The notes under the pieces were generated by a model. That model was not told the DNA's origin, did not search any database, and worked only from the letters and a program-made list of their open reading frames with translations. Below are positions 17,738 to 39,311 of a stretch of DNA of 39,875 bases, piece after piece. Position 1 is the first letter of the stretch. Each line of letters starts with the position of its first letter. Source of the DNA: a virus. Where the stretch lies: the UHGV virus genome UHGV-0200725. One strand, given 5' to 3'. A program made the position numbers and the translations under genes.

Positions 17738-18250
17738 ATATCTGTGTAACAGGTAAGAGCATTCTCCCTTATGGGGCTTGGCTTAAATGCACCGAGTGCT
17801 CTTACCGTTGTGATGAATGCACAGGCTGATGTGCCGCAACTACAGTAGTGCGCGCTTTGCGGGGCTTGCTACAACCCTGAGTCGGAGTTCAGCACCGACC
17901 ATCACAACGCAACGTTAAGAGTATTTGGCTAATTAAGCGAATGCCGGAAGCAGAACCGGATCACCAAATGCGTACAGGCGTCATCGCCGACCAGCAACAG
18001 CACAACCCAAACTGAGCCGTAGCCACTGGCTATCCTGGATTCATCAGTGATAGTTATGCTGCGGCCTTCTACACATGATCTTCGTGAAAGCGGGTGACAG
18101 GAGGTCGCGCTAACAACCTCCTGCCGTTTTGCCCGTGCATATCGGTCACGAACAAATCTGATTACTAAACACAGTAGCCTGGATTTGTTCTATCAGAAAT
18201 CGACCTTATTCCTAATTAAATAGAGCAAATCCCCTTATTGGGGGTAAGAC

Positions 18251-18574
18251 ATGAAGATGCCAGAAAAACATGACCTGTTAGCCGCTATTCTCGCGGCAAA
18301 GGAACAAGGCATCGGGGCAATCCTTGCGTTTGCAATGGCGTACCTTCGCGGCAGATATAATGGCGGTGCGTTTACAAAAACAGTAATCGACGCAACGATG
18401 TGCGCCATTATCGCCTGGTTCATTCGTGACCTTCTCGACTTCGCCGGACTAAGTAGCAATCTCGCTTATATAACGAGCGTGTTCATCGGCTACATCGGTA
18501 CTGACTCGATTGGTTCGCTTATCAAACGCTTCGCTGCTAAAAAAGCCGGAGTAGAAGATGGTGGAAATCAATAA
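18251..18574 (+). CDS. S: Class I holin (lambda S-type) with dual-start motif
   Basis: 107-aa ORF starting MKM, three transmembrane segments, charged C-terminus; matches lambda S as recalled. Confidence 0.9.
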
Positions 18575-19034
18575 TCAACGTAAGGCGTTCCTCGATATGC
18601 TGGCGTGGTCAGAGGGAACTGATAACGGACGGCAGAAAACCAGAAATCATGGTTATGACGTCATTGTTGGCGGAGAGCTATTCACTGATTACTCCGATCA
18701 CCCTCGCAAACTTGTCACGCTAAACCCCAAACTCAAATCAACAGCAGCCGGACGTTACCAGCTTCTTTCCCGTTGGTGGGATGCCTACCGTAAGCAGCTT
18801 GGACTGAAAGATTTCTCTCCGAAAAGTCAGGACGCTGTGGCATTGCAGCAGATTAAGGAGCGTGGCGCTTTACCGATGATTGATCGCGGTGATATTCGTC
18901 AGGCTATCGACCGTTGCAGCAATATCTGGGCTTCACTGCCGGGTGCTGGTTATGGTCAGTTCGAGCATAAGGCTGACAGCCTGATTGCAAAATTCAAAGA
19001 AGCAGGCGGAACGGTCAGAGAGATTGAGGTATGA
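18558..19034 (+). CDS. R: Endolysin (lambda R-type lytic transglycosylase)
   Basis: 158-aa ORF overlapping holin 3' end; catalytic region [11 protein letters not shown]. Confidence 0.9.
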
Positions 19035-19468
19035 GCAGAGTAGCCGCGATTATCTCCGCTCTGGTTATCTGCATCATCGTTTGCCTGTCATGGGCGGTCA
19101 ATCATTACCGTGATAATGCAATCGCCTACAAAGAGCAGCGCGATAAGGCCGCATCCACAATTGCTGACATGCAGAAGCGTCAACGTGATGTAGCAGTACT
19201 TGACGCCAGATACACAAAGGAGCTTGCTGATGCTAACGCGACTATCGAAAGCCTCCGTGCTGATGTTTCTGCTGGGCGTAAGCGCCTGCAAGTCGCCGCC
19301 ACCTGTGCAAAGTCAACGACCGGAGCCAGCAGCATGGGCGATGGAGAAAGCCCAAGACTTACAGCAGATGCTGAACTCAATTATTACCGTCTCCGAAGTG
19401 GAATCGACAGGATAACCGCGCAGGTTAACTACCTGCAGGAGTACATCAGGACGCAATGCCTTCGATGA
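19031..19468 (+). CDS. Rz: Rz i-spanin
   Basis: 145-aa ORF with N-terminal TM anchor and coiled-coil periplasmic domain. Confidence 0.85.
19230..19415 (+). CDS. Rz1: Rz1 o-spanin lipoprotein embedded in Rz in the +1 frame
   Basis: ATG 19230 preceded by AAAGGAG; signal peptide with lipobox LGVSAC and proline-rich mature region. Confidence 0.7.
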
Positions 19469-19642
19469 TAGCGATAATTTTACTCATCATCCTTCACATC
19501 TGGCTCTGTAGGCAGGGTGGTGATCACTTCTGGAGTAAATCCAGATTAAACATCTCATTGCTGATGCTTGATATTGAGCATCTGGCGCGCAGTAAGGGGC
19601 TGCGTTGAGATAAGAGCCAGTTCATTACAAATACCAGGATTT

Positions 19643-19668
19643 AGCCTCGCATTCGCGGGGCTTTTTAT
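19643..19668 (+). terminator. Probable rho-independent terminator downstream of the lysis cassette
   Basis: AGCCTCGC-ATTC-GCGGGGCT (one mismatch) followed by TTTTATAT. Confidence 0.45.
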
Positions 19669-19810
19669 ATCTGAATTTCACAGCGCATCTCACGCGCATA
19701 TTAACGAGAGCCTTTCAGTAAGCGAGCCTGAGAAATGCCGTTATAGGTGGCGACCTCTCTCGGGCGGCTTTTCTGTGAGACAGGTTCACTTTCTAAAAGG
19801 TAAAGACGCT

Positions 19811-20329
19811 ATGAATCATCAATTGGCTAATCTCGATTTCCGGGACATGGTGGTTGTTTCTGGTGATCGCGTGATCACAACCTCCCGCAAGGTAGCAGCT
19901 TACTTCGACAAGCAGCATCACCACATCATTCAGAAAATCGAAAAGCTAGACTGTTCGGATGAATTTCTAACCAGCAACTTTTCGCGGGTTACCTATGAAC
20001 ACAAGGGTAATCAGTATGTTGAATATGAAATTTCCAAAGACGGTGCGATGTACATCATCATGTCGTTTACCGGCAAAAAAGCTGCCGCCATCAAAGAGGC
20101 GTTTATCAAAGCATTTAATTGGATGCGTGACAGGCTGATGGAGATGGCTCACTCATACCAAAGAGAGCACAACGAGTTAATGCTGGAGTTCATGAAGGAA
20201 AAGGATGTTGCCAGTATGTCAGGACGCTTGCTGAACCGCTGGGGCAGGATCAAAAAACCGCAACTCATAGCAAGAATCAAAAGGCTTGAGCAGCAGGCGC
20301 AAATATCGATCCCCGGACTGCCAAAGTGA
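19811..20329 (+). CDS. rha: Rha-family phage regulatory protein
   Basis: 172 aa from ATG 19811; N-terminal MNHQLANLDFRDMVVVSGDRVITTSRKVAAYFDKQHHHIIQKIEKL typical of Rha proteins; track ORF from 19568 is an over-extension. Confidence 0.75.
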   Translation: MNHQLANLDFRDMVVVSGDRVITTSRKVAAYFDKQHHHIIQKIEKLDCSDEFLTSNFSRVTYEHKGNQYVEYEISKDGAMYIIMSFTGKKAAAIKEAFIKAFNWMRDRLMEMAHSYQREHNELMLEFMKEKDVASMSGRLLNRWGRIKKPQLIARIKRLEQQAQISIPGLPK

Positions 20330-20681
20330 CCATTCCAAAGCCCATCTACGGGTGGGCTTGATAATGAAACCGTGATTTACATCCCCACAATCCGGGTATG
20401 TAAAAGATAGTTCAGGCGAGAACAGATTTAACTAAATCTGTGCACCACCAGTTGCGGCAGTACAGCGAAACAACACAAGCCAGTAAGTGGGGAAATAACA
20501 CTGGCAGCCACTGAAAGATGAACCTCCTGCCTTATGGCAAAAAAGATTCTTTGTGGTGGCGGACTGATGGAAAGACATCGGTTATTGCAGAGGCCATTCA
20601 ATGAATGGTCTCGACAATGGCTTATACCCTACACGGGATAACTTAACTGATATCCCTTTTAACGGATAAACGGAGCCAACA

Positions 20682-27660: not shown

Positions 27661-28138
27661 TTTAGTTCTTGCGGCATTACGTAAGCTCGGTGTGGCATCA
27701 AATGCCACGTTAACCGATGTCGAACCGCAGTCTATGGAAGACGGCGTCAACGACCTTGAAATGATGATGGCTGAATGGCTTGGCGGTGATGTGTCACCTG
27801 GTATCAACGTTGGTTACATTTTCGCTGATGCAGATGTCGCTCCAGATCCGGGCGATGAGCACGGTTTATCAAATAACGCTATCAATGCTGTCATTTTCAA
27901 CCTTGCCTGCCGCATTGCACCGGATTATGCGCTGGAAGCGCCTGCAAAACTTATAACCACTGCCAGATACGGGAAAGAGCGACTCGTCAAACTGTCTGCA
28001 ATGGACAGAGCAAAAGCCGCTAAATGTAAGTCCGGTTATCCAAACCGTATGCCTGTTGGTAGCGGTAACCAGTTGGCGAAGTGGAACGGTTGGAATTACT
28101 TCCACCGAAAGGAACCTTGCGATAACGGGAGCGAATAA
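27638..28138 (+). CDS. 4: Head-completion / tail accessory protein (P22 gp4-type)
   Basis: 166 aa from ATG 27638 ([33 protein letters not shown]...); track ORF from 27539 is an over-extension. Confidence 0.8.
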
Positions 28139-29556
28139 TGCCGATTCAGCAACTTCCGCTTATGAAAGGTGTCGGCAAAGACTTCCGAAACGCCGACTAT
28201 ATCGACTATCTGCCAGTGAATATGTTGGCTACACCAAAAGAAATCCTTAACAGCAGCGGATATCTTCGCTCATTCCCGGGCATTGCCAAACGTTCTGATG
28301 TGAACGGCGTATCGCGTGGCGTCGAGTACAACATGGCGCAGAATGCTGTTTATCGCGTGTGTGGTGGCAAGCTGTACAAAGGCGAAAGTGAAGTCGGTGA
28401 TGTTGCCGGAAGTGGTCGCGTATCAATGGCACATGGTCGGACATCACAGGCGGTAGGTGTTAACGGGCAACTGGTCGAATACCGCTATGATGGCACGGTT
28501 AAAACCGTCTCAAACTGGCCTACAGACAGCGGATTCACGCAGTATGAGTTAGGTTCTGTTCGTGACATTACTCGCTTACGTGGGCGTTATGCGTGGTCAA
28601 AAGACGGCACTGATTCATGGTTTATTACTGACCCTGAAGATGAATCGCACCCTGACCGCTACAGCGCACAATATCGCGCAGAATCGCAGCCGGACGGAAT
28701 CATCGGCATCGGAACATGGCGAGACTTCATCGTCTGCTTTGGTTCATCGACGATTGAGTATTTCTCCCTGACTGGCGCAACCACAGTTGGTGCTGCTTTG
28801 TATGTCGCACAGCCATCACTGATGGTGCAAAAAGGCATCGCCGGGACTTACTGCAAAACTCCATTCGCTGATTCTTATGCGTTCATCAGCAATCCGGCAA
28901 CAGGTGCGCCGTCTGTGTATATCATCGGCTCCGGGCAGGTGTCACCAATCGCCAGCGCGAGCATTGAGAAAATCCTCCGCTCCTACACTGCTGATGAACT
29001 GGCTGATGGCGTGATGGAATCGTTGCGCTTTGATGCTCATGAGCTGCTGATTATCCATCTTCCGCGCCATGTTCTGGTGTACGACGCATCTTCAAGCGCC
29101 AATGGTCCGCAATGGTGTGTACTGAAAACAGGCCTGTATGACGATGTGTACCGCGCTATCGACTTCATTTACGAAGGCAATCAGATAACGTGCGGCGATA
29201 AGCTGGAATCGGTGACCGGGAAATTGCAGTTCGATATCAGTAGTCAGTATGGGCTACAGCAAGAACACCTGCTGTTTACTCCGTTGTTCAAAGCGGATAA
29301 CGCCAGAGTTTTCGACCTTGAAGTTGAATCGTCAACTGGCGTTGCGCAGTACGCCGACCGCCTGTTCCTCTCTGCAACCACTGACGGCATCAATTACGGG
29401 CGTGAGCAGATGATTGAGCAGAATGAACCGTTCGTTTACGACAAACGCGTTTTGTGGAAGCGAGTAGGGCGCATCAGGAAAAATGTTGGCTTCAAATTGC
29501 GCGTTATCACGAAGTCACCTGTAACTCTGTCTGGCTGCCAGATAAGGATTGAGTAA
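28138..29556 (+). CDS. 10: Tail accessory protein (P22 gp10-type)
   Basis: 472-aa ORF, same length and position as P22 gp10. Confidence 0.85.
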
Positions 29557-30509
29557 TGGCTGATTCGAATCTCAATGAGCCAGTAATCATCCAGGCTACG
29601 CGGCTCGATACATCAGTCCTTCCACGCAATATCTTCTCTCAGTCGTATCTGCTTTACGTTATTGCACAGGGTACTGATGTTGGTAATGTGGCTAACAAGG
29701 CCAACGAAGCAGGGAAGGGGGCTTATGATGCACAGGTGAAGAATGATGAGCAGGATGTCACCCTTGCAGACCATGAATCCAGAATTGAAACTGCTGAAGC
29801 AACTCTCATCAATCATGAACATAGAATCTCAGCAGCGGAAAGCACTCTTGCAGATCATGAAACAAGGATTACGGCTGCCGAAACAGAGCTGGCTGATCAC
29901 GAGACGCGAATTGCTGCCAATGAATCTGAGTTAGCAAACCATGATGCGCGAATAACTCAGAATACAACCGATATCAACGCACTTGATACCAGGCTCACAG
30001 CGGCAGAGGGAAGTATTTCGACGCTACAAAGCACAGTTGGTGATCACTCAACAAGAATATCTGCGCTTGAGTATGCCACCACGCGCAAGAAATCAGAGGT
30101 TGTTTACTCAGGAGTATCGGTAACCATTCCAACAGCGCCTACCAACCTTGTTAGCCTGCTGAAAACGCTCACGCCGTCATCAGGCACGTTGGCACCATTC
30201 TTCGACACCGTTAACAACAAGATGGTTGTGTTCAACGAGAACAAAACCCTGTTCTTCAAGCTGTCGATTGTCGGGACGTGGCCCAGCGGAACCTCCAACA
30301 GGTCAATGCAGCTAACATTTTCCGGTTCTGTACCTGACACACTGGTAAGCAGTCGTAACTCGGCGACAACAACCGATAACATCCTGTTAGCTACGTTCTT
30401 CAGCGTGGATAAAGACGGCTTTCTTGCCACAAATGGCAGCACGTTAACCATTCAGTCAAATGGGGCGGCGTTTACTGCCACAACCATCAAGATAATCGCG
30501 GAGCAGTGA
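29556..30509 (+). CDS. 26: Tail needle (P22 gp26-type) with extended coiled coil and C-terminal knob
   Basis: 317-aa ORF; N-terminus matches gp26; five tandem 14-residue heptad-pair repeats ([14 protein letters not shown] / [13 protein letters not shown] / [14 protein letters not shown] / [14 protein letters not shown] / [14 protein letters not shown]); about 150-residue beta-rich C-terminal domain. Confidence 0.8.
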
Positions 30510-30964
30510 TGATTCAGTTCAAACCAACGCGAAACATCGACCTGATCGAAGCAGTCGGAAATCACCCTGACATTATTGCCGGGAGCAACAACGGTGATGG
30601 ATACGACTACAAGCCTGAATGCCGTTACTTTGAGGTTAACGTGCACGGTCAGTTTGGCGGCATTGTTTACTATCAGGAGATTCAGCCGCTGACATTCGAT
30701 TGCCACGCCATGTACCTGCCAGAGGTTCGTGGCTTCAGCAAGGAAATCGGGCTGGCGTTCTGGCGATACATTCTGACTAACACCACTGTTCAGTGCGTCA
30801 CATCGTTCGCTGCACGCAAATTCCGCCACGGTCAGATGTACTGCGCAATGATTGGCCTTAAGCGTGTAGGAACCATCAAGAAATACTTCAAAGGCGTTGA
30901 TGACGTGACGTTTTACAGCGCCACACGCGAAGAACTAATCGACTTCCTGAATCACGGGAGATAG
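30506..30964 (+). CDS. 14: Tail accessory protein (P22 gp14-type)
   Basis: 152-aa ORF in conserved position after the needle gene. Confidence 0.75.
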
Positions 30965-30966
30965 CC

Positions 30967-31659
30967 ATGTTATATGCATTTAAGCTGGGCAGAAAACTGC
31001 GCGGCGAGGAACCTTATTGCCCTGAAAAAGGCGGGAAAGGTGGCAGCTCTGATAAAAGCGCAAAGTATGCAGCAGAAGCTCAGAAGTATGCCGCAGACCT
31101 GCAAAATCAGCAGTTCAACACCATCATGAACAACCTGAAGCCGTTTACTCCTCTGGCTGATAAGTATGTCGGCAGCCTCGAGAACTTATCGTCTCTGGAA
31201 GGGCAAGGTCAGGCACTTAACCAGTATTACAACTCTCAGCAGTACAAAGATCTTGCTGGTCAGGCTCGTTATCAGAGTCTGGCGGCAGCGGAAGCAACAG
31301 GTGGATTAGGTTCCACCGCAACCAGTAATCAGTTAGCAACAATCGCACCAACGCTAGGTCAGCAATGGCTATCTGGACAAATGAACAATTACAACAACCT
31401 GGCAAATATCGGTCTTGGCGCTCTTCAGGGGCAGGCAAACGCCGGGCAAACATATGCCAACAACATGAGTCAGATTTCTCAGCAAAGTGCGGCTCTTGCA
31501 GCGGCAAATGCCAACAGACCATCAGCAATGCAATCTGCTATTGGCGGAGGTGCGTCTGGTGCTATTGCTGGGGCCGGACTTGCGAAATTAATTGGTTCAT
31601 CAACTCCGTGGGGGGCTGCGATCGGCGGCGGTCTTGGTCTGCTTGGCTCGTTGTTTTAA
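30967..31659 (+). CDS. 7: Ejection protein (P22 gp7-type)
   Basis: 230-aa Gln/Ala/Gly-rich ORF with Gly-rich hydrophobic C-terminus. Confidence 0.8.
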   Translation: MLYAFKLGRKLRGEEPYCPEKGGKGGSSDKSAKYAAEAQKYAADLQNQQFNTIMNNLKPFTPLADKYVGSLENLSSLEGQGQALNQYYNSQQYKDLAGQARYQSLAAAEATGGLGSTATSNQLATIAPTLGQQWLSGQMNNYNNLANIGLGALQGQANAGQTYANNMSQISQQSAALAAANANRPSAMQSAIGGGASGAIAGAGLAKLIGSSTPWGAAIGGGLGLLGSLF

Positions 31660-31669
31660 GGGGTAATCA

Positions 31670-33085
31670 ATGGCTACGTGGCAACAGGGTATTAATTCTG
31701 GTGGTTTTCTGGCTGGCATCGGTACGCAAAATGAGAATGCGCCAAAGGCAAGCGACATTAACGCAACGCTTGGTCTGATCCGCGAAAACAATGAACTGGC
31801 TCGCTCAGGTGCAAATAACATTGGTCTGACCGCGTTACGTGGTCTGGCTGGAGTTGCTGATATTTACAATCAGGAACAGCAACAGAAAGCTATTAGTGCG
31901 TTCAATAAGGTTCACGCTGATGCATGGGCTTCTGGTGATCCATCTGGACTATTTAAGTTTGCCCAGGAAAATCCAGCGTTTGTTGCACAGGCACAACAGG
32001 CGTTTTCCGGTCTTAATGAGCAGCAACGCAACGATATGGGCGATTTAGCCATGAGGGCTAACGTCGCTCTTTCTCAGGGACCGGAAGCCTACAGTAAATT
32101 CATTACTGACAACAAGGACAGGTTAAATCGCGTTGGTGCTAATGCTGACTGGATGATTCAGACAGGTATCCAGAATCCAGAGCAGCTATCACACATGCTG
32201 ACTACTATGTCTCTCGGTGCGCTTGGACCAGAAAAGGCGTTTGCTGTTCAGGACAAGATGGCTGGTCGTGAGATTGACCGAGGCAGGCTGGCAGAGACAA
32301 TCCGCAGCAATCAGGCTGGTGAAGCACTTCAGGCGAGAGGGCAAAACCTTTCCTATCAGTCAGCAATGACTGGGCACAATATCGCAGCACAACGCTTGGC
32401 TCTGGATCAGCAAGAGTTCGGGTTTAAGATGCAGCAAGCGCAGGAAAAGGCTCAGCAGTTGATTAGCGAAGCACCTAAGCTGTCAGTAAACATGGAAAAA
32501 GGCATCGAGACGGCTGTAAACAATGCTACAGCATCATCAAACTCAGCCAATTCTATGAGTGCGCTTGCTCAACAGTTCAGAGCAGAAAAACCAACGACAG
32601 GTTTGTTCGGTAACGCACAGAACATGTTCGCAAAACTTACCGGAAGCGATACAACATTGCGTGATTTGCGCATTCGCCAAAATGCCCTTGTTAACAGTCA
32701 GGTTCTTAAATTCCTACCTCCCGGCCCAGCAACGGATAAAGACGTTGAGATCGTTCGACAGGGTGCGCCAACTGACATGGATAACCCTGAGACGGTCGCA
32801 AGATGGCTTGATGCAATGGCAAACCTTGAGCGACGAAACGCGCAGTTTAATGAGTTTAAAGCCGAGTGGATGAGCGCGAATGGCAACCCTGGACAATCGC
32901 GTAATGGCGGTCAGATATTGGGGTTGGATGTTAAAAAAGGTGAATCATTGGGGAGTGCCGTTAAGCGGTATATGTCAATGAATACTGACGCAGCGCCAGC
33001 ACAAGATTCGACACCTTCAGGAGAACCACGGAATCAGGTTGGATCATATACCTCAAAATCAGGCATTCAATTTACGGTGGAATGA
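31670..33085 (+). CDS. 20: Ejection protein (P22 gp20-type)
   Basis: 471-aa ORF in conserved order. Confidence 0.8.
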
Positions 33086-34923
33086 TGAAAGTAACTGCAA
33101 ACGGTAAGACATTTACCTTTCCTGATGGTACGAGCACCGAAGATATTGGCACCGCCATTGATGAGTATTTTGCTGGTCAGGCTGTTCAGCAACAAATAGT
33201 TAATCAGGCCAATAATGCACCAACACGGGAAGAACCATCATTGATGCAACAAGCTGGCGATTGGCTCACTGGTGGTCAAAGTGCAGGGCAAATTGCAGAA
33301 CAGGCTGGTCGTGGTCTGGTAAACATACCATTTGACGTATTGCAGGGCGGCGCAAGTCTGATTAATGCAATCAGTCAGGGGCTTGGTGGACCCAAGGTTT
33401 TGGATGATGTTTATCGTCCAGTAGACAGACCGACAGACCCCTACGCGCAAGCCGGTGAAACAATTGGTGGGTATTTAGTTCCAGGAGTTGGAACGGCAGG
33501 AAGCATGGCTATTGGATCACTGGCAGAGGCCGCAAATCAGAAAGGCGATTTCGCACAAAATGCAGCTAAAAATGCCGGAGTTAACCTTGCCACTCAGGGT
33601 GTTCTTTCCGCAGCAGCAAAGGGAATAGGGCGTGGAATAACGGCTATAAAAGGTGATATTGCGCCAGAAGTGGCGAAGAAAATTGCCACATCAGAATCGA
33701 TGGGCGTGACACCAATGACATCTGATGTTATCCCGCCGAAAAATGCTTTCACTCGCGGCCTAACTCAGGATGCCGAGGGGGCTTTGCTCGGGACAGGCTC
33801 AAAGCGAGCGGAGCAATATGCAACGCGTAGTAAGCTGGTAAGTAATTATTTTGACCGTTTTGGTGAGTACAACCCTGATGATGTGGTGAAATCTCTTACC
33901 ACCACGTTAAGGGGGCGGAAGGATGCCGCTGGCGCTGTTATCAATGACGTCACCAATAAAATGGGTAATGCCGCAGTTGATACCACAAATACCATGAATG
34001 CTCTGAATACAGCGATCGCAAGACAGGAACGGCTTGGGACGTCTGCCAATCAAAGCCTGCTTACATCCTTGCGTAACCTACGTGAAGAATTAGCAAACCC
34101 TGCAACTGATTTGGATGTTACGTTTGATCTCTTGCGTCAGCACAGAACAGCATTTAGATCTAATGTTCAGGGAGATGCTATGGTCTTCCCCAACCAGGCA
34201 AAAGCAGCTACCAATATGGTAGAGAATGCAATGTCAAAAGACCTTCGTAACGCAGTTGCTAAAAACCTCGGTGCATCAGACGCAGCAAAATACCTTAAAG
34301 CAAATTCCGATTATGCAAACGTTTATAATAAGGTGCTTAATAAAAACATTGCTAACAAGCTCAACAAGGCAAGCAGTGAAGCCAGTCCTGAACTTATAAA
34401 TACCGTTGTATTAAGCAGAAAACCATCTGACGTGAAACGAATATGGAGCGCCCTGGATGATAAAGGGAAAGATGCTATGCGTGCAGCTTACGTCAGCAAA
34501 ATAGCGGAAAAGGCCGGTGACTCTCCAGCCAAGTTCATCACTGAAGTTAATAAGCTGAAATCTCAGTCAGGCGGTGAAATTTACAACACTATTTTTTCTG
34601 GAAAGCACATGAAAGAGCTTGATGCTCTTCATGAAGTTCTACAGCAAACAGCAAGGTCAGACACCGCAAATGTAGTAACTCAGACGGGGCAATCACAAGC
34701 CAACAGGATAAGGACGATTGGCGCAACTGCGACTCTTGGTGTATCAATGGGGCTTGAGGCTGGCTTTGGTGCAATGATGCGTTTGTATGAGTCCAAAGCA
34801 GCAAGGAATGCTCTCTTACGTCTGGCAAACACTAAAGCTGGAACGCCAGCCTATGAAAGAGCGTTGAGTAACGCTGCAAATGCCATCAGGCCGCTGCTTG
34901 CTACTGAGGCAACACAGCAGTAA
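33082..34923 (+). CDS. 16: Ejection protein (P22 gp16-type)
   Basis: 613-aa ORF, last of the ejection-protein trio. Confidence 0.8.
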
Positions 34924-34947: not shown

Positions 34948-35337
34948 TTAACATTTTCTTTTTACTTTTCCAACAAAAGCTTTGGTTGAATCCATATTCC
35001 CATAACCAGAAATGGTTTTCGACATTAAAACTGTTCCATTAGGATGTATTACCCATGAGTCGATAACTCGTTGAGTTTCGCCATTCGCGCCGATTCCAAT
35101 GATGGAGTTTTTAGACAATGCTTTGTAAGCCATGCCGCCCGCATCCGTCCCAGAATATGTGATACTGGCATCTTCACCGTTTGTCTTAATGATGAATGTT
35201 CCACTAAAACCATCTTCTTCCGGTTGAAAATTATTTCGTTCTGAATAGCTTATTCCGTGCATATCTCCAACGACCCAGCACTCTGCTGAGACAGAAAACG
35301 AGAAGACAAGGAAAGCCATTGCTATAATCAATTTCAT
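34948..35337 (-). CDS. Secreted hypothetical protein (129 aa) with signal peptide, distal gene of the mnt operon
   Basis: N-terminal MKLIIAMAFLVFSFSVSA then ECWVV; Cys near both ends of the mature protein; beta-rich; convergent with gene 16 (24-nt gap). Confidence 0.65.
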   Translation of the reverse strand: MKLIIAMAFLVFSFSVSAECWVVGDMHGISYSERNNFQPEEDGFSGTFIIKTNGEDASITYSGTDAGGMAYKALSKNSIIGIGANGETQRVIDSWVIHPNGTVLMSKTISGYGNMDSTKAFVGKVKRKC

Positions 35338-35352
35338 TTTAAGCCCTTATTG

Positions 35353-35688
35353 TTATTGATTCTTTTTGCACGGAAATGTTTTTCCTACTGCTAGGGCGGT
35401 TAGTATAACTGCACTCTCATTTCTTGATTCTGGGTTTTTGTTTAGATATTTCTCAACGATATCGGTGTATTGATACATGTCAACGCCATCAGGAGGACAT
35501 AGAGAACCAATTAGTATCAATGAGTCAGTTACTCCGCGCAAATATCCAGTAATGTAAAGCGATGAAAAATCATCACCCTTTTTACCTTGTTGAATGTTGT
35601 AAAGAAGGTCATTACCCGTTTGAAGCTCGCGCAGCTCAGCACTGGAAGAAGAGACAACTGCTAACAAGAACAGTGATAGAAATCTCAT
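35353..35688 (-). CDS. Secreted hypothetical protein (111 aa) with signal peptide, translationally coupled to mnt
   Basis: ATG 35688-35686 overlaps the mnt TGA; N-terminal MRFLSLFLLAVVSSSSA; two Cys in mature protein; helical character. Confidence 0.65.
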   Translation of the reverse strand: MRFLSLFLLAVVSSSSAELRELQTGNDLLYNIQQGKKGDDFSSLYITGYLRGVTDSLILIGSLCPPDGVDMYQYTDIVEKYLNKNPESRNESAVILTALAVGKTFPCKKNQ

Positions 35689-37238: not shown

Positions 37239-39311
37239 ATGACAGACATTACAGCCAATGTTGTAGTGAGCATGCCTTCGCAACTCTTCACTATGGCTCG
37301 TTCTTTTAAAGCCGTAGCCAATGGCAAAATCTATATCGGTAAAATTGACACTGACCCGGTAAATCCTGAAAACCAGATTCAGGTTTATATAGAGAACGAA
37401 GACGGTTCTCACGTTCCTGTTTCGCAACCAATCATCATTAATGCGGCTGGTTACCCGGTATATAACGGACAGATTGCCAAGTTCGTAACTGTGCAAGGCC
37501 ATTCGATGGCTGTTTATGATGCATACGGTGTGCAGCAGTTCTATTTTCCTAATGTGCTGAAGTATGACCCGGATCAGTTGCGACAGCAATTATTAAACCC
37601 TGACACTGGCCTAGGAGATGCGCTTGTTATTGTTAAACAGCCATATGCTGATTCTGTACCTATTACTCAACATCAGCACAACACCTATCTCCTTACCCCT
37701 TACCACTTCGGAGCAAAGGGAGATGGTATTGCAGATGACACTCTTGCCCTAAACCGCTGGTCCAATTGCGGAGCTAAGGTACTCTATTGGCCAGCAGGAA
37801 AATATCTGGTGAGCCCTACAAATGGTGTTTCTCTGGATATGGATAACTACCATACAGGGGATTCCGCACTAACGGCGTGCGTAACCGTTCCCTATGGCGT
37901 GAAAATTTATACGGCTGGGACAGAAACCCAGTTATGCGTGAAGGATGCTGACTCAGCATCGACCGTAGGTCTGGCCGTTAGCTACCCGGAGTCAAGTTAT
38001 TCCCAGGGAGAAACCGACATCGGAAAATTCATGATTCGCCTGGAAAACGGAAATGGTCGGTACGGTATTCTTACTCCACTCAGGGAGGAAATGTTCACTG
38101 CGCACCGGGCGAAGTTCAAATTAGGAGCGCATTTCGGTCCTCAACAGGGGCGTGATGACCTGACGGTGCTACAGTATTCGTGGGTAAATGGCATGCTGAT
38201 TGGCGACGCTTTTAGCGGCTCAGTGCATGTCACTGGATACGGCAGCTATAACGTGCAGCAGGTTGAAGGTACGCAATTCCAGTGCGTGGCCGTTAAGATG
38301 AAGTCCGTTCGAGGTAACGTAGGTGTAGACATCAGATTCAACACAAACAACTGGTGGAAGTTTGTCGAACTGAGTGACGGCGTTGAAGGGTTTGTTGTCA
38401 AGGACAGCGAAGGGCTTGGGGCATTTGTTGGAATCGACCTAACCAACCCAGCCAGCGAGCCAGGTGGATTTATCGATAACGTACACGTCAACGTTAAGCA
38501 AAACGGAGTACGAGCCAGAAACAGGCCATCCCTGCAAATCGGAAACATTGAAGTCTATAAAAGTGATGGATTTGCCACTGACCTTGTTTACGATGCGGTG
38601 CTTCTGGTTGACTGCCAGGAAGTGACTATCAACTCTATTCACGCAATCGTCGGCAACTCAATCACAAATGCTCAGTCAGTAGTTAACTCGACAAACAGCA
38701 CATTCCGCCTGAACTCATACTTTGCGCAAAACATCAGGTTCGTCGATTTTGTGGTTAATAGCCCTGACTGCTATGTCGGAGAGGGGACAATTAACCAGGT
38801 CGAGGCAGTTCACTCACTTTCTGGATCACAAAGCAACGACTTCCACGGTAGTGATGTTCTGGTTAGATCCTACAGAAACAACGTTCGCCCACTTTACGCA
38901 GTGATGGATTCCGCTTTCAACAGGGCAAGGGCGAGGTTTCCACAAAATACAAGCCTCCAGGTGAGAACCTTTCTCGACTACACTGTGGCAGCAGCTGGGA
39001 CTTTAACAATAGAACCAAGGCTTGACCCCTCCAGGTACTACATCATCATGAGTGCTGGTACAGGTGCCTTCACCTATTCAATTGAGCTGGATAAAGTGTC
39101 TGCCGTAGTTGGTGATATTGTTTACATAAAGATAGCCGGGTCATCATCTGCTAACCCAACAGTTTTGGTTAAAAATGGTATTGGTGGGACAACGCTCAGC
39201 ACATTCAATAATATCGGTCCGATTCGTTTGAATTGTGCTTACAGATTTAATGAGTCAGGTAACTGGGTGGCCTACTACATTACCCAAAGCGTTGAAACCA
39301 CTTATGGCTAA
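37239..39311 (+). CDS. 9: Tailspike: P22 gp9-type head-binding N-terminal domain with a divergent receptor-binding body
   Basis: 690-aa ORF; first roughly 115 residues ([11 protein letters not shown]...VLKYDPDQ) match the P22 tailspike head-binding domain; remainder is Gly/Asn/Val-rich beta-helix-like sequence unlike P22. Confidence 0.85.

Follow-up and report, generated by a model that had tools for sequence, protein, structure and literature searches.

A knob-tipped tail needle gene of P22-like phages and its natural variants of shaft length

Described tail needles and the identity of the gene

The tail needles of phages P22 and Sf6 are known to plug the tail channel and to be released at infection, and it is the N-terminus of the needle that acts as the plug in the gp10 hub (PMC3741392, PMC9728967). 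The Sf6 needle has been modelled in the cryo-EM structure of the Sf6 tail (PMC9728967). The Sf6 and P22 needles contain 11 heptads each, while the published needle of prophage HS1 is a 317-aa protein that contains 16 heptads and has a knob formed by residues 167-317 (4K6B, 1.1 Å; Leavitt et al. 2013, PMC3741392). P22 gp26 ends in a different domain that is not a knob (PMC3741392).

Here we analyzed a stretch of 39,875 nucleotides of viral DNA (UHGV virus genome UHGV-0200725), the whole of which is referred to below as the window. The features of the locus of interest are collected in Table 1. The open reading frame at positions 29556-30509 is a real gene, and it is the tail needle gene of a P22-like (Lederbergvirus) phage or prophage. 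Its start codon overlaps the stop codon of gp10 (TAATG, 29554-29558), and its stop codon overlaps the likely ATG of the downstream gene (TGATG, 30507-30511). The 317-aa protein matched PHROG 1030, "tail needle knob" (E 6e-136), and PHROG 1219, "tail needle protein", spans its residues 1-111. Three other open reading frames (29613-29822 and 30104-30451 on the minus strand, 29743-29934 on the plus strand) are unsupported and lie inside this conserved coding gene; we rejected them as due to chance.

In agreement with the first-pass annotation, which had proposed a gp26-like needle that is longer than that of P22 and ends in a C-terminal knob, the N-terminal 138 residues resemble P22 gp26 structures, the C-terminus shares about 99% identity with the knob structures of HS1 and Sf6, and the gene order is canonical. 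The P22 gp26 chains in the PDB have 233 aa, a difference of 84 aa. No evidence contradicting the identification as a tail needle was found. Almost certainly, the gene specifies the tail needle of a temperate, P22-like podovirus, a trimer of the "knobbed" type represented by Sf6 and HS1, and needle length changes in natural populations through insertions and deletions at short homologies; the trimeric state is predicted from the 97-99% identity to crystallised trimers. The exact 317-aa protein is also present on eight further contigs, phages JEP4, Gally and vB_EcoP-720R6 have needles of the same length, and the gene was matched over at least 80% of its length in 164 of 5,426 complete E. coli genomes.

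The "tail needle knob protein" of prophage HS1 in E. coli HS (EcHS_A0316 / WP_000785558.1, PDB 4K6B) aligned to the window needle without gaps, with 307 of 317 residues identical (97%). The two proteins are alike in length, in having 16 heptads, in their knob contacts and in gene neighbourhood. Nine of the ten substitutions (given as window to HS1) are located in the N-terminal domain and shaft (E8V, K54Q, K62R, T79A, S92A, D100E, A107D, T138A and N141D), and a single one, S247A, in the knob; no architectural difference was found. Thus, the architecture of the window needle is already known, having been published as that of the HS1 needle, which the first-pass annotation had not noticed. The window is not prophage HS1 itself: the needle DNA is about 97% identical rather than the same, and the remaining window is a different mosaic.

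Gp9 of Shigella phage Sf6 (282 aa, PDB 3RWN) shares with the window needle the plug domain, the knob (about 99% identity), the PF16532 match and synteny. It lacks 28+7 residues of the window needle (alignment columns 104-131 and 147-153), has 11 rather than 16 heptads, and contains three LxDHExRI units instead of five. Its shaft is also less similar, with 67% identity between HS1 and Sf6 (Leavitt et al. 2013, PMC3741392).

The similarity to gp26 of Salmonella phage P22 (233 aa; 2POH, 3C9I) is restricted to the homologous N-terminal domain that binds the hub and to the beginning of the coiled coil (residues 1-138 by phmmer), with about 54% identity over residues 1-159 by tblastn. The two proteins share the NDEQD calcium motif and the LADHE-RI units and, by analogy, would share the role of channel plug. 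The C-terminal tip of gp26 is unrelated to the window knob: neither phmmer nor tblastn gave a match to residues 160-317, and a P22-type tip (gp26 residues ~141-233) is absent from the window needle, the P22-type matches ending at residue ~138 (phmmer) or ~159 (tblastn). Additional helical repeats can be inserted in register into the gp26 shaft, as shown by an engineered elongated gp26 fibre (PDB 4LIN, 300 aa). This fibre matched the window needle in two overlapping stretches because its core is duplicated; unlike the window needle, it is a laboratory construct with a P22 backbone and a P22-type tip.

Domains of the 317-residue protein

Table 1. Positions of the needle gene, its domains, repeats and short homologies, and of the neighbouring genes in the window.
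Feature	Position	Strand	Basis or detail
Gp10-type tail hub, its channel presumably plugged by the needle	28138-29556	+	472 aa; PF11134 Phage_stabilise, E 2e-298
Tail needle gene, homolog of P22 gene 26 / Sf6 gene 9 / HS1 EcHS_A0316	29556-30509	+	317 aa, ATG start
N-terminal domain, residues 1-62, predicted to plug the gp10 tail-hub channel	29556-29741	+	phmmer to P22 gp26 structures
Coiled-coil shaft, residues 63-174, 16 uninterrupted heptads	29742-30077	+	Register analysis
Five tandem 14-residue (two-heptad, 42-bp) units, residues 69-138	29760-29969	+	Core L(a)-H(d)-I(a)-A/N(d)
Short homology CTTGCAGACCATGAA	29763-29777	+	Partner CTTGCAGATCATGAA at 29847-29861, 84 bp apart
Microhomology TGATCAC (D-H codons)	29894-29900	+	Repeat at 30041-30047, 147 bp apart
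Microhomology CGCGAAT	29905-29911	+	Repeat at 29947-29953, 42 bp apart
C-terminal knob, residues 175-317, TNF-like jellyroll	30078-30506	+	PDB, Pfam and Foldseek matches
Gp14-like DUF2824 protein	30509-30964	+	PF11039, E 6e-53
Ejection protein gene gp7	30967-31659	+	PF25688 and PF16928 for gp7/gp20 families
Ejection protein gene gp20	31670-33085	+	PF25688 and PF16928 for gp7/gp20 families
Ejection protein gene gp16	33082-34923	+	ORF; gp16 homolog in related loci has PF26808

In phmmer searches, residues 3-64 of the window needle aligned with 8eap_B, a 62-aa chain corresponding to the needle N-terminus in the P22 tail (E 1.5e-27), and residues 1-138 aligned with 2poh (E 2e-42). The N-terminal 40 residues were predicted by AlphaFold2 with low confidence in the monomer model (pLDDT about 43).

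The calcium-binding NxxQD motif of P22 gp26 places N at position a and Q at position d of the heptad (PMC13580157). The same motif opens the shaft of the window needle (N63, Q66 and D67), and a register analysis anchored on it revealed heptads without stutter from residue 63 to residue 174, the a positions reading NLILILILILIILIVI and the d positions QHAHAHAHNHNLALHL. The AlphaFold2 monomer contained a single continuous helix at residues 42-175, with pLDDT values of 92-98 across the repeats and a predicted length of ~200 Å. Structure prediction had been suggested as a check by the first-pass annotation; in the model obtained the repeats are helical and a discrete beta domain is present at residues 179-316.

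The C-terminal domain, anticipated as beta-rich and of roughly 150 residues, was confirmed. Pfam family PF16532 (Phage_tail_NK) covers residues 136-317 (E 3.3e-107; 356 bits, with the cutoff at 27), the crystal chains 4k6b_A (E 3.8e-90) and 3rwn_A (E 3.1e-89) matched residues 165-317 with about 99% identity, and the same two structures, 4K6B and 3RWN, were the top Foldseek matches of the AlphaFold2 knob (target-normalised TM 0.91-0.92, rmsd about 1.9 Å). All residues listed as L-glutamate contacts in the HS1 knob (PMC3741392) are present (HS1 numbering: E181, K235, S283, D285, L290 and K312), and so is the phosphate-contacting triad S266-R267-N268 at the tip; binding of both ligands is predicted from this conservation. 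The suggestion that knobs are implicated in penetration of the cell envelope held in part. In published experiments, the knob did not determine host specificity but altered the kinetics of K+ release and of DNA delivery (PMC3741392).

For plugging and release we rely on the characterised homologs and propose the following sequence of events. The N-terminal ~60 residues of three chains would enter and plug the channel of the gp10 hub, and the plugged channel would keep the ejection proteins and the packaged DNA inside. The 16 heptads of residues 63-174 would assemble into an unbroken three-stranded coiled coil that carries the tip beyond the tailspikes, and the knob (residues 175-317) would have three L-glutamates bound at the subunit interfaces. 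Expulsion of the needle would follow tailspike processing of the O-antigen and arrival of the tip at the outer membrane, and gp7, gp20, gp16 and the DNA would then exit through the channel. The type of tip may modulate the speed of needle expulsion and delivery.

Length variants, their junctions and the fourteen-residue units

The first-pass annotation had proposed that the DNA repeats could recombine to vary needle length, and that repeat number should be surveyed among relatives. Natural variants were indeed found. In a set of 111 proteins (110 homologs and the window protein), shaft length was 40+7n, with 7-20 heptads, in 107 cases. Needles of 303, 289 and 268 aa are exact deletions of 42, 84 and 147 bp of the 317-aa form, respectively, and a 345-aa needle is an 84-bp duplication relative to it. 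The junctions of these variants are located at homologies of 7-15 bp that exist in the window, namely the pairs CGCGAAT, CTTGCAGA(C/T)CATGAA and TGATCAC. According to the DNA alignment, the CTTGCAGACCATGAA/CTTGCAGATCATGAA pair is the junction of both the 84-bp deletion (289 aa, P0042) and the 84-bp tandem duplication (345 aa, P0001), and Tandem Repeats Finder (TRF) reported a period-84 repeat of 2.5 copies on L006. The CGCGAAT pair is the junction of the 42-bp deletion giving the 303-aa needle (P0015), and the TGATCAC pair that of the 147-bp (seven-heptad) deletion giving the 268-aa needle (P0061). The latter junction was placed by the protein sequence and exact motif positions, MAFFT having misplaced that deletion. 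Homologies of only 7-15 bp point more to slippage mediated by microhomology, or to illegitimate recombination, than to classical homologous recombination as the cause of the length changes.

Mosaic homologous recombination is typical of lambdoid and P22-like phages, and the length diversity might be due for the most part to diverged needle alleles swapping entire shaft segments, with intragenic slippage being minor. We consider this possible but doubtful. The entire window is a mosaic of many phages, and shafts of the HS1 and Sf6 types differ by substitutions throughout as well as by the 28+7 residues; the 67% identity of these shafts, as against 98-99% in the flanking domains (Leavitt et al. 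2013, PMC3741392), would fit either module exchange or old divergence. Variants within a lineage, however, are near-identical except for one clean indel with flanking microhomology. Moreover, the 345-aa and 338/310-aa forms repeat parts of their own sequence in tandem, perfectly or nearly so, and P0010 and P0012 combine the private substitutions of the window with the 42-bp deletion at the CGCGAAT junction. Segment exchange as the sole mechanism is refuted by recurrent independent indels on different backbones, as the 303-aa needles are of two kinds that represent at least two independent 14-residue deletions. Exchange therefore accounts for the difference between 317 and 282 aa but not for the 303/289/268/345 series, and probably both exchange and slippage operate.

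It is very unlikely that the unusual lengths stem from errors of sequencing or assembly, or from decaying prophage genes, so that there would be no real functional polymorphism of length. Many variant clusters do have a single member sequence, the 345-aa form is known from one contig, and the four proteins off the heptad grid (P0008, P0051, P0053 and P0055) may be defective. On the other hand, the 303-aa and 289-aa needles were found on 17 contigs each and the 268-aa needle on seven, some of these contigs being Mb-scale and of several origins; intact portal-to-gp16 operons surround both the shortest and the longest form; and the preservation of heptad phase in nearly the whole set is unlike random errors or decay. 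The polymorphism of length and its junctions are thus present in natural sequences.

Within the window allele itself, five 14-residue units are present as first described, but the label "near-identical" does not fit them: compared in pairs, the first four share 57-71% of their residues, and the fifth shares 36-50% with the others. The 14-residue period is much stronger than expected by chance. In the shaft, lag-14 identity was about 0.43, compared to 0.09 after full shuffling and 0.24 after shuffling that preserved the composition of each heptad position, and a value as high as the observed one was never obtained in 20,000 shuffles of either kind. Identities at lags 14, 28 and 42 were 0.42, 0.39 and 0.27, against 0.14 and 0.17 at lags 7 and 21. 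The corresponding DNA segments show 38-74% identity, exact words in common within 29700-30100 reach 8 bp at most, and TRF reported no repeat over 29400-30700, even at score 30; a low-stringency repeat finder recovered the 42-bp-spaced family only at 61-74% identity. As the DNA lacks a recognisable tandem repeat, the periodicity is demonstrated at the protein level and by the low-stringency repeat finder. It also follows that the repeats of the window, with exact matches of at most 8 bp, are too diverged for efficient RecA-type recombination, and length change from this allele would be rare.

The idea that the periodicity is a convergent, low-complexity by-product of heptad constraints in the coiled coil, and that the length differences of relatives have nothing to do with the units, is disfavoured and most improbable: the low DNA identity of the units, the failure of TRF to report a repeat, the use of the same codon at only 15 of 42 lag-14 identical residues and the slight excess over background at lags 7 and 21 would suit it, but the heptad-preserving shuffles fall short of the observed value, lags 14, 28 and 42 far exceed lags 7 and 21, and natural indels are exact multiples of the unit that break at conserved unit codons.

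We therefore favour descent of the units by duplication. The 14-residue units are very probably old duplications of a two-heptad module, L-x-x-H-E-x-R-I-x-x-A-E-x-x, and conservation of its codons has left short direct homologies at spacings of 42, 84 and 147 bp. In natural populations these homologies most likely give rise to in-frame and in-register deletions and duplications in steps of whole heptads, with plug and knob undisturbed. It is conceivable, though on balance unlikely, that the two-heptad units act as built-in "length adjusters" through recurrent in-register indels at short homologies that the conserved L-x-D-H-E-x-R-I codons maintain, and that selection tunes either the reach of the knob past the tailspikes through O-antigen or capsule, or the stability of the plug and the kinetics of ejection. 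An adaptive value of the length polymorphism is speculation; the variants are known as prophage or metagenome sequences, and any effect of shaft length on function is putative.

Significance and gene neighbourhood

As an annotation, the result adds little, the window needle being a near-copy of one that has already been cloned, had its knob crystallised and been swapped into P22; differences in heptad number among P22-like needles are also already in the literature. A small added value lies in the nucleotide-level view of length change, with homologies of 7-15 bp located 42, 84 and 147 bp apart. In addition, the needles of E. coli and Shigella prophages naturally span 7-20 heptads, which extends the published range of 11-16 in both directions. 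The length variants constitute a ready-made allelic series for relating the reach of the needle to adsorption, triggering of DNA ejection and virion stability.

The Pfam families of the flanking open reading frames give the order gp10 / needle / gp14 / gp7 / gp20 / gp16, which is that of the P22-like morphogenesis operon, and this order is repeated at the needle loci of JEP4, Sf6, Gally, HS1 and metagenome contigs. The start of the gp14-like gene was placed at a GTG (30506) by the ORF finder and at the ATG at 30509 by the annotation of homologs. Next to the identical 317-aa needle, two contigs carry a tailspike of 665 aa with Head_binding and Peptidase_S74 domains, while that of the window has 690 aa; this difference speaks to some extent against a tight linkage of needle length to tailspike type. 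The contig with a 254-aa needle ends within the tailspike gene, and the contig with the 345-aa needle has no called tailspike gene.

Identity and operon setting of the needle protein

An ORF finder placed the needle gene at 29556..30509 (+), with an ATG start and encoding 317 aa, exactly as in the first-pass annotation. The gene start overlaps the stop codon of the upstream 472-aa ORF (gp10) in the sequence TAATG (29554-29558), and at the other end its stop codon shares TGATG (30507-30511) with the probable ATG of the gp14-like gene that follows; the mechanical ORF list starts the latter gene at GTG 30506, and homologs are annotated from ATG 30509. These overlaps imply translational coupling on both sides, and such tight coupling is as expected within a phage morphogenesis operon. 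The flanking ORFs were assigned by Pfam to gp10 (PF11134), a DUF2824/gp14-like protein, gp7 (PF25688) and gp20 (PF16928), and the whole window is a mosaic P22-like (Lederbergvirus) genome.

Needle residues 136-317 match PF16532 (Sf6-type tail needle knob; 356 bits versus a cutoff of 27), and the PHROGs assignments are 'tail needle knob' and 'tail needle protein'. In comparisons with PDB entries, residues 165-317 were ~99% identical to the knobs of HS1 (4K6B, E 3.8e-90) and Sf6 gp9 (3RWN, E 3.1e-89), and residues 1-138 matched P22 gp26 (233 aa; E about 1e-42). Prophage HS1 was found in the E. coli HS chromosome; its 'tail needle knob protein' is 317 aa long and identical to the window protein at 307/317 positions without any gap, the DNA being ~97% identical. 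Phages JEP4, vB_EcoP-720R6 and Gally have the same 317-aa form (97-98% identity); Sf6 gp9 (282 aa) has a shaft shorter by 28+7 residues. The gene was matched in 848 of 5,426 complete E. coli genomes, with at least 80% of its length covered in 164, and the exact protein is also present on 8 other public contigs. The window needle is an HS1-type knobbed tail needle and already known: since the HS1 and Sf6 needles have been published (PMC3741392, PMC9728967), it is a new sighting of a structurally characterised protein.

Leavitt et al. 2013 (PMC3741392) compared the HS1 needle (EcHS_A0316) with that of Sf6: the N-terminal domains are 98% identical and the knobs (HS1 residues 167-317) 99%, and the HS1 knob was solved at 1.1 A. 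They predicted a helical core of 210 A with 16 heptads for HS1, where Sf6 and P22 have 11. Across P22-like phages they gave needle lengths of 220-320 A and heptad numbers of 11-16, and they found that K+ release (i.e. DNA delivery) is slowed by changes at the tip. In the cryo-EM structure of the Sf6 tail the needle plugs the channel of the gp8 hub (PMC9728967). We infer trimerisation, plugging and release for the window needle: by homology, the N-termini of three chains would plug the gp10 channel, the 16-heptad coiled coil would reach past the tailspikes, the knob would be the first virion part at the outer membrane, and needle release would open the channel for gp7, gp20, gp16 and the DNA. 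Standard coiled-coil geometry predicts roughly 50 A more reach from the five extra heptads relative to Sf6 and P22.

Predicted fold and heptad register

An AlphaFold2 monomer model (35 homologs as input; mean pLDDT 82.6) contains one unbroken helix (residues 42-175; pLDDT 92-98 over the repeats) and a discrete beta domain of seven long strands (residues 179-316). Helical repeats and a separate C-terminal domain, both proposed in the first-pass annotation, are thus seen in the model. Foldseek against PDB matched the beta domain to 4K6B and 3RWN (target TM 0.91-0.92) and, more distantly, to TNF/C1q-like jellyrolls and PRD1 P5, in agreement with the published knob description. The L-glutamate/phosphate contact residues reported for the HS1 knob (PMC3741392) are all kept (E181, K235, S283, D285, L290, K312 and the S266-R267-N268 triad).

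In P22 gp26 the N and Q of the Ca2+-coordinating NxxQD motif occupy heptad positions a and d, respectively (PMC13580157). When the register was anchored on this motif (N63, Q66 and D67 in the window needle), the shaft consisted of 16 heptads without stutter (residues 63-174), with NLILILILILIILIVI at the a positions and QHAHAHAHNHNLALHL at the d positions. The 14-residue unit therefore is a two-heptad module in which a Leu/His pair of layers precedes an Ile/Ala (or Asn) pair.

Six His residues occupy d positions (H73, H87, H101, H115, H129 and H164; nt 29772-30047 for residues 73-164), alternating with Ala, and two Asn (N122 and N136) are also at d positions. Stacked as His3 layers in the core of a trimer, these histidines could confer pH or metal-ion sensitivity on the shaft; a limited search of the needle literature found no discussion of this.

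Length variants and the 14-residue repeat

We surveyed the length of 121 proteins, the window protein and its best 120 homologs. Two anchor motifs (NDEQD and an 11-residue motif) were both found in 111, and the distance between them was 40+7n residues in 107 of these; total lengths of the other 10 proteins all fell on the same 254+7n grid. The heptad classes observed (7, 9, 11, 12, 13, 14, 15, 16, 18, 19 and 20) are wider than the published 11-16. The length variants of the HS1 lineage are clean derivatives of the 317-aa form, and the Sf6 lineage behaves alike (254, 296, 310 and 338 aa). Homologs P0010 and P0012 (both 303 aa) are direct derivatives of the window's own allele, because they carry its private substitutions T79, S92 and N141 together with a 42-bp deletion.

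Needle repeats, length variants (changes relative to the 317-aa form) and tailspike, with window positions
Feature	Position	Strand	Description	Junction homology
Five 14-residue units (14-residue framing)	residues 69-138, nt 29760-29969	+
303 aa (P0015)			14 residues lost between units 4 and 5
303 aa, second kind (P0011)			14 residues lost between units 1 and 2; independent event
303 aa, DNA junction	29905 and 29947		42-bp deletion	CGCGAAT
289 aa (P0042)	29763 and 29847		units 1-2 lost; 84-bp deletion	CTTGCAGA(C/T)CATGAA
268 aa (P0061)	29894 and 30041		49 residues lost; 147-bp deletion	TGATCAC
345 aa (P0001)	29763 and 29847		units 1-2 perfectly duplicated in tandem; 84-bp duplication	CTTGCAGA(C/T)CATGAA
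331 aa (P0009)			P0001-type duplication plus 14-residue deletion
Tailspike	37239-39311	+	690 aa; P22 head-binding domain, residues 1-113

The DNA of four length variants was retrieved and aligned to locate the junctions. Every junction sits at a short direct homology present in the window, and Tandem Repeats Finder detected the 84-bp duplication of the 345-aa allele (period 84, 2.5 copies). The earlier proposal that the repeats could recombine to vary needle length is thereby supported in substance. Homologies as short as these (just 7-15 bp) are consistent with replication slippage or with microhomology-mediated recombination, selection for heptad phase acting as a filter, and are not consistent with ordinary homologous recombination between repeats that had been called 'near-identical'. 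In general the first interpretation was right, and recombination at the repeats is the one part that goes slightly beyond the literature consulted. The modest novelty lies in describing, down to the nucleotide, a heptad-quantised length polymorphism, which may or may not be adaptive, and in the 7-20 heptad range.

The shafts of HS1 and Sf6 are 67% identical (PMC3741392), with substitutions throughout. For this larger difference, old divergence or an exchange of modules is the better explanation. Mosaic exchange as the source of all needle-length diversity could plausibly account for the 317-aa versus 282-aa difference but not for the clean indels within lineages. Four proteins with off-grid shafts, P0008 (316 aa), P0051 (298 aa), P0053 (285 aa) and P0055 (309 aa), each a single-member cluster, may well be defective; they could represent decayed prophage genes, errors of assembly or stuttered coiled coils. 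For the variants as a whole, an origin as artefacts or decaying genes is contradicted by multi-contig support (17 contigs each for the 303-aa and 289-aa proteins, 7 for the 268-aa protein), by the conserved heptad phase and by the presence of both the shortest and the longest forms within intact operons.

Lag-14 identity over the shaft was 0.43, versus 0.09 after full shuffling and 0.24 when each heptad position kept its composition; the observed value was reached by 0/20,000 shuffles in either control. Mere heptad bias is rejected as the origin of this periodicity, since the register-preserving shuffle falls short of it and the indels are unit-sized. At the protein level units 1-4 are mutually 57-71% identical and unit 5 shares 36-50% with them; the 42-bp DNA units are 38-74% identical, and the longest exact word common within 29700-30100 is 8 bp. 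Tandem Repeats Finder reported no repeat in the window's needle gene, and a low-stringency search gave a 42-bp-spaced family at 61-74% identity. Thus, the periodicity of the five tandem units described in the first-pass annotation is real but 'near-identical' was overstated. As the signal exceeds both shuffle controls despite the low DNA identity, the repeat is real but old.

Tailspike and accessory genes

In the slot for accessory genes that separates gp16 from mnt/arc, a 110-aa ORF (35353-35688, -) matches the type VI secretion immunity family Rap1a (PF18602; E 9.6e-15, 55 bits versus a cutoff of 27.7). The neighbouring 129-aa ORF (34948-35337, -) has no Pfam match, and the pair is also present in metagenome contig L011. 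Carried by a P22-like prophage, such a T6SS-immunity-like gene could be protective for the lysogen.

In L014, a prophage with the 345-aa needle, 2.4 kb at the expected tailspike site (18226-20638) are without a called gene; the tailspike may be disrupted or uncalled, which bears on the viability of the phage carrying the longest needle. Residues 1-249 of the window tailspike resemble Sf6 gp14 (7sg7), and its remaining receptor-binding part has no PDB sequence match and a weak pectate-lyase-like match in Pfam. The identical needle protein is accompanied by a different tailspike (665 aa; Head_binding and Peptidase_S74) on two other contigs (L009 and L010), suggesting that a given needle allele is not tightly tied to one tailspike type.
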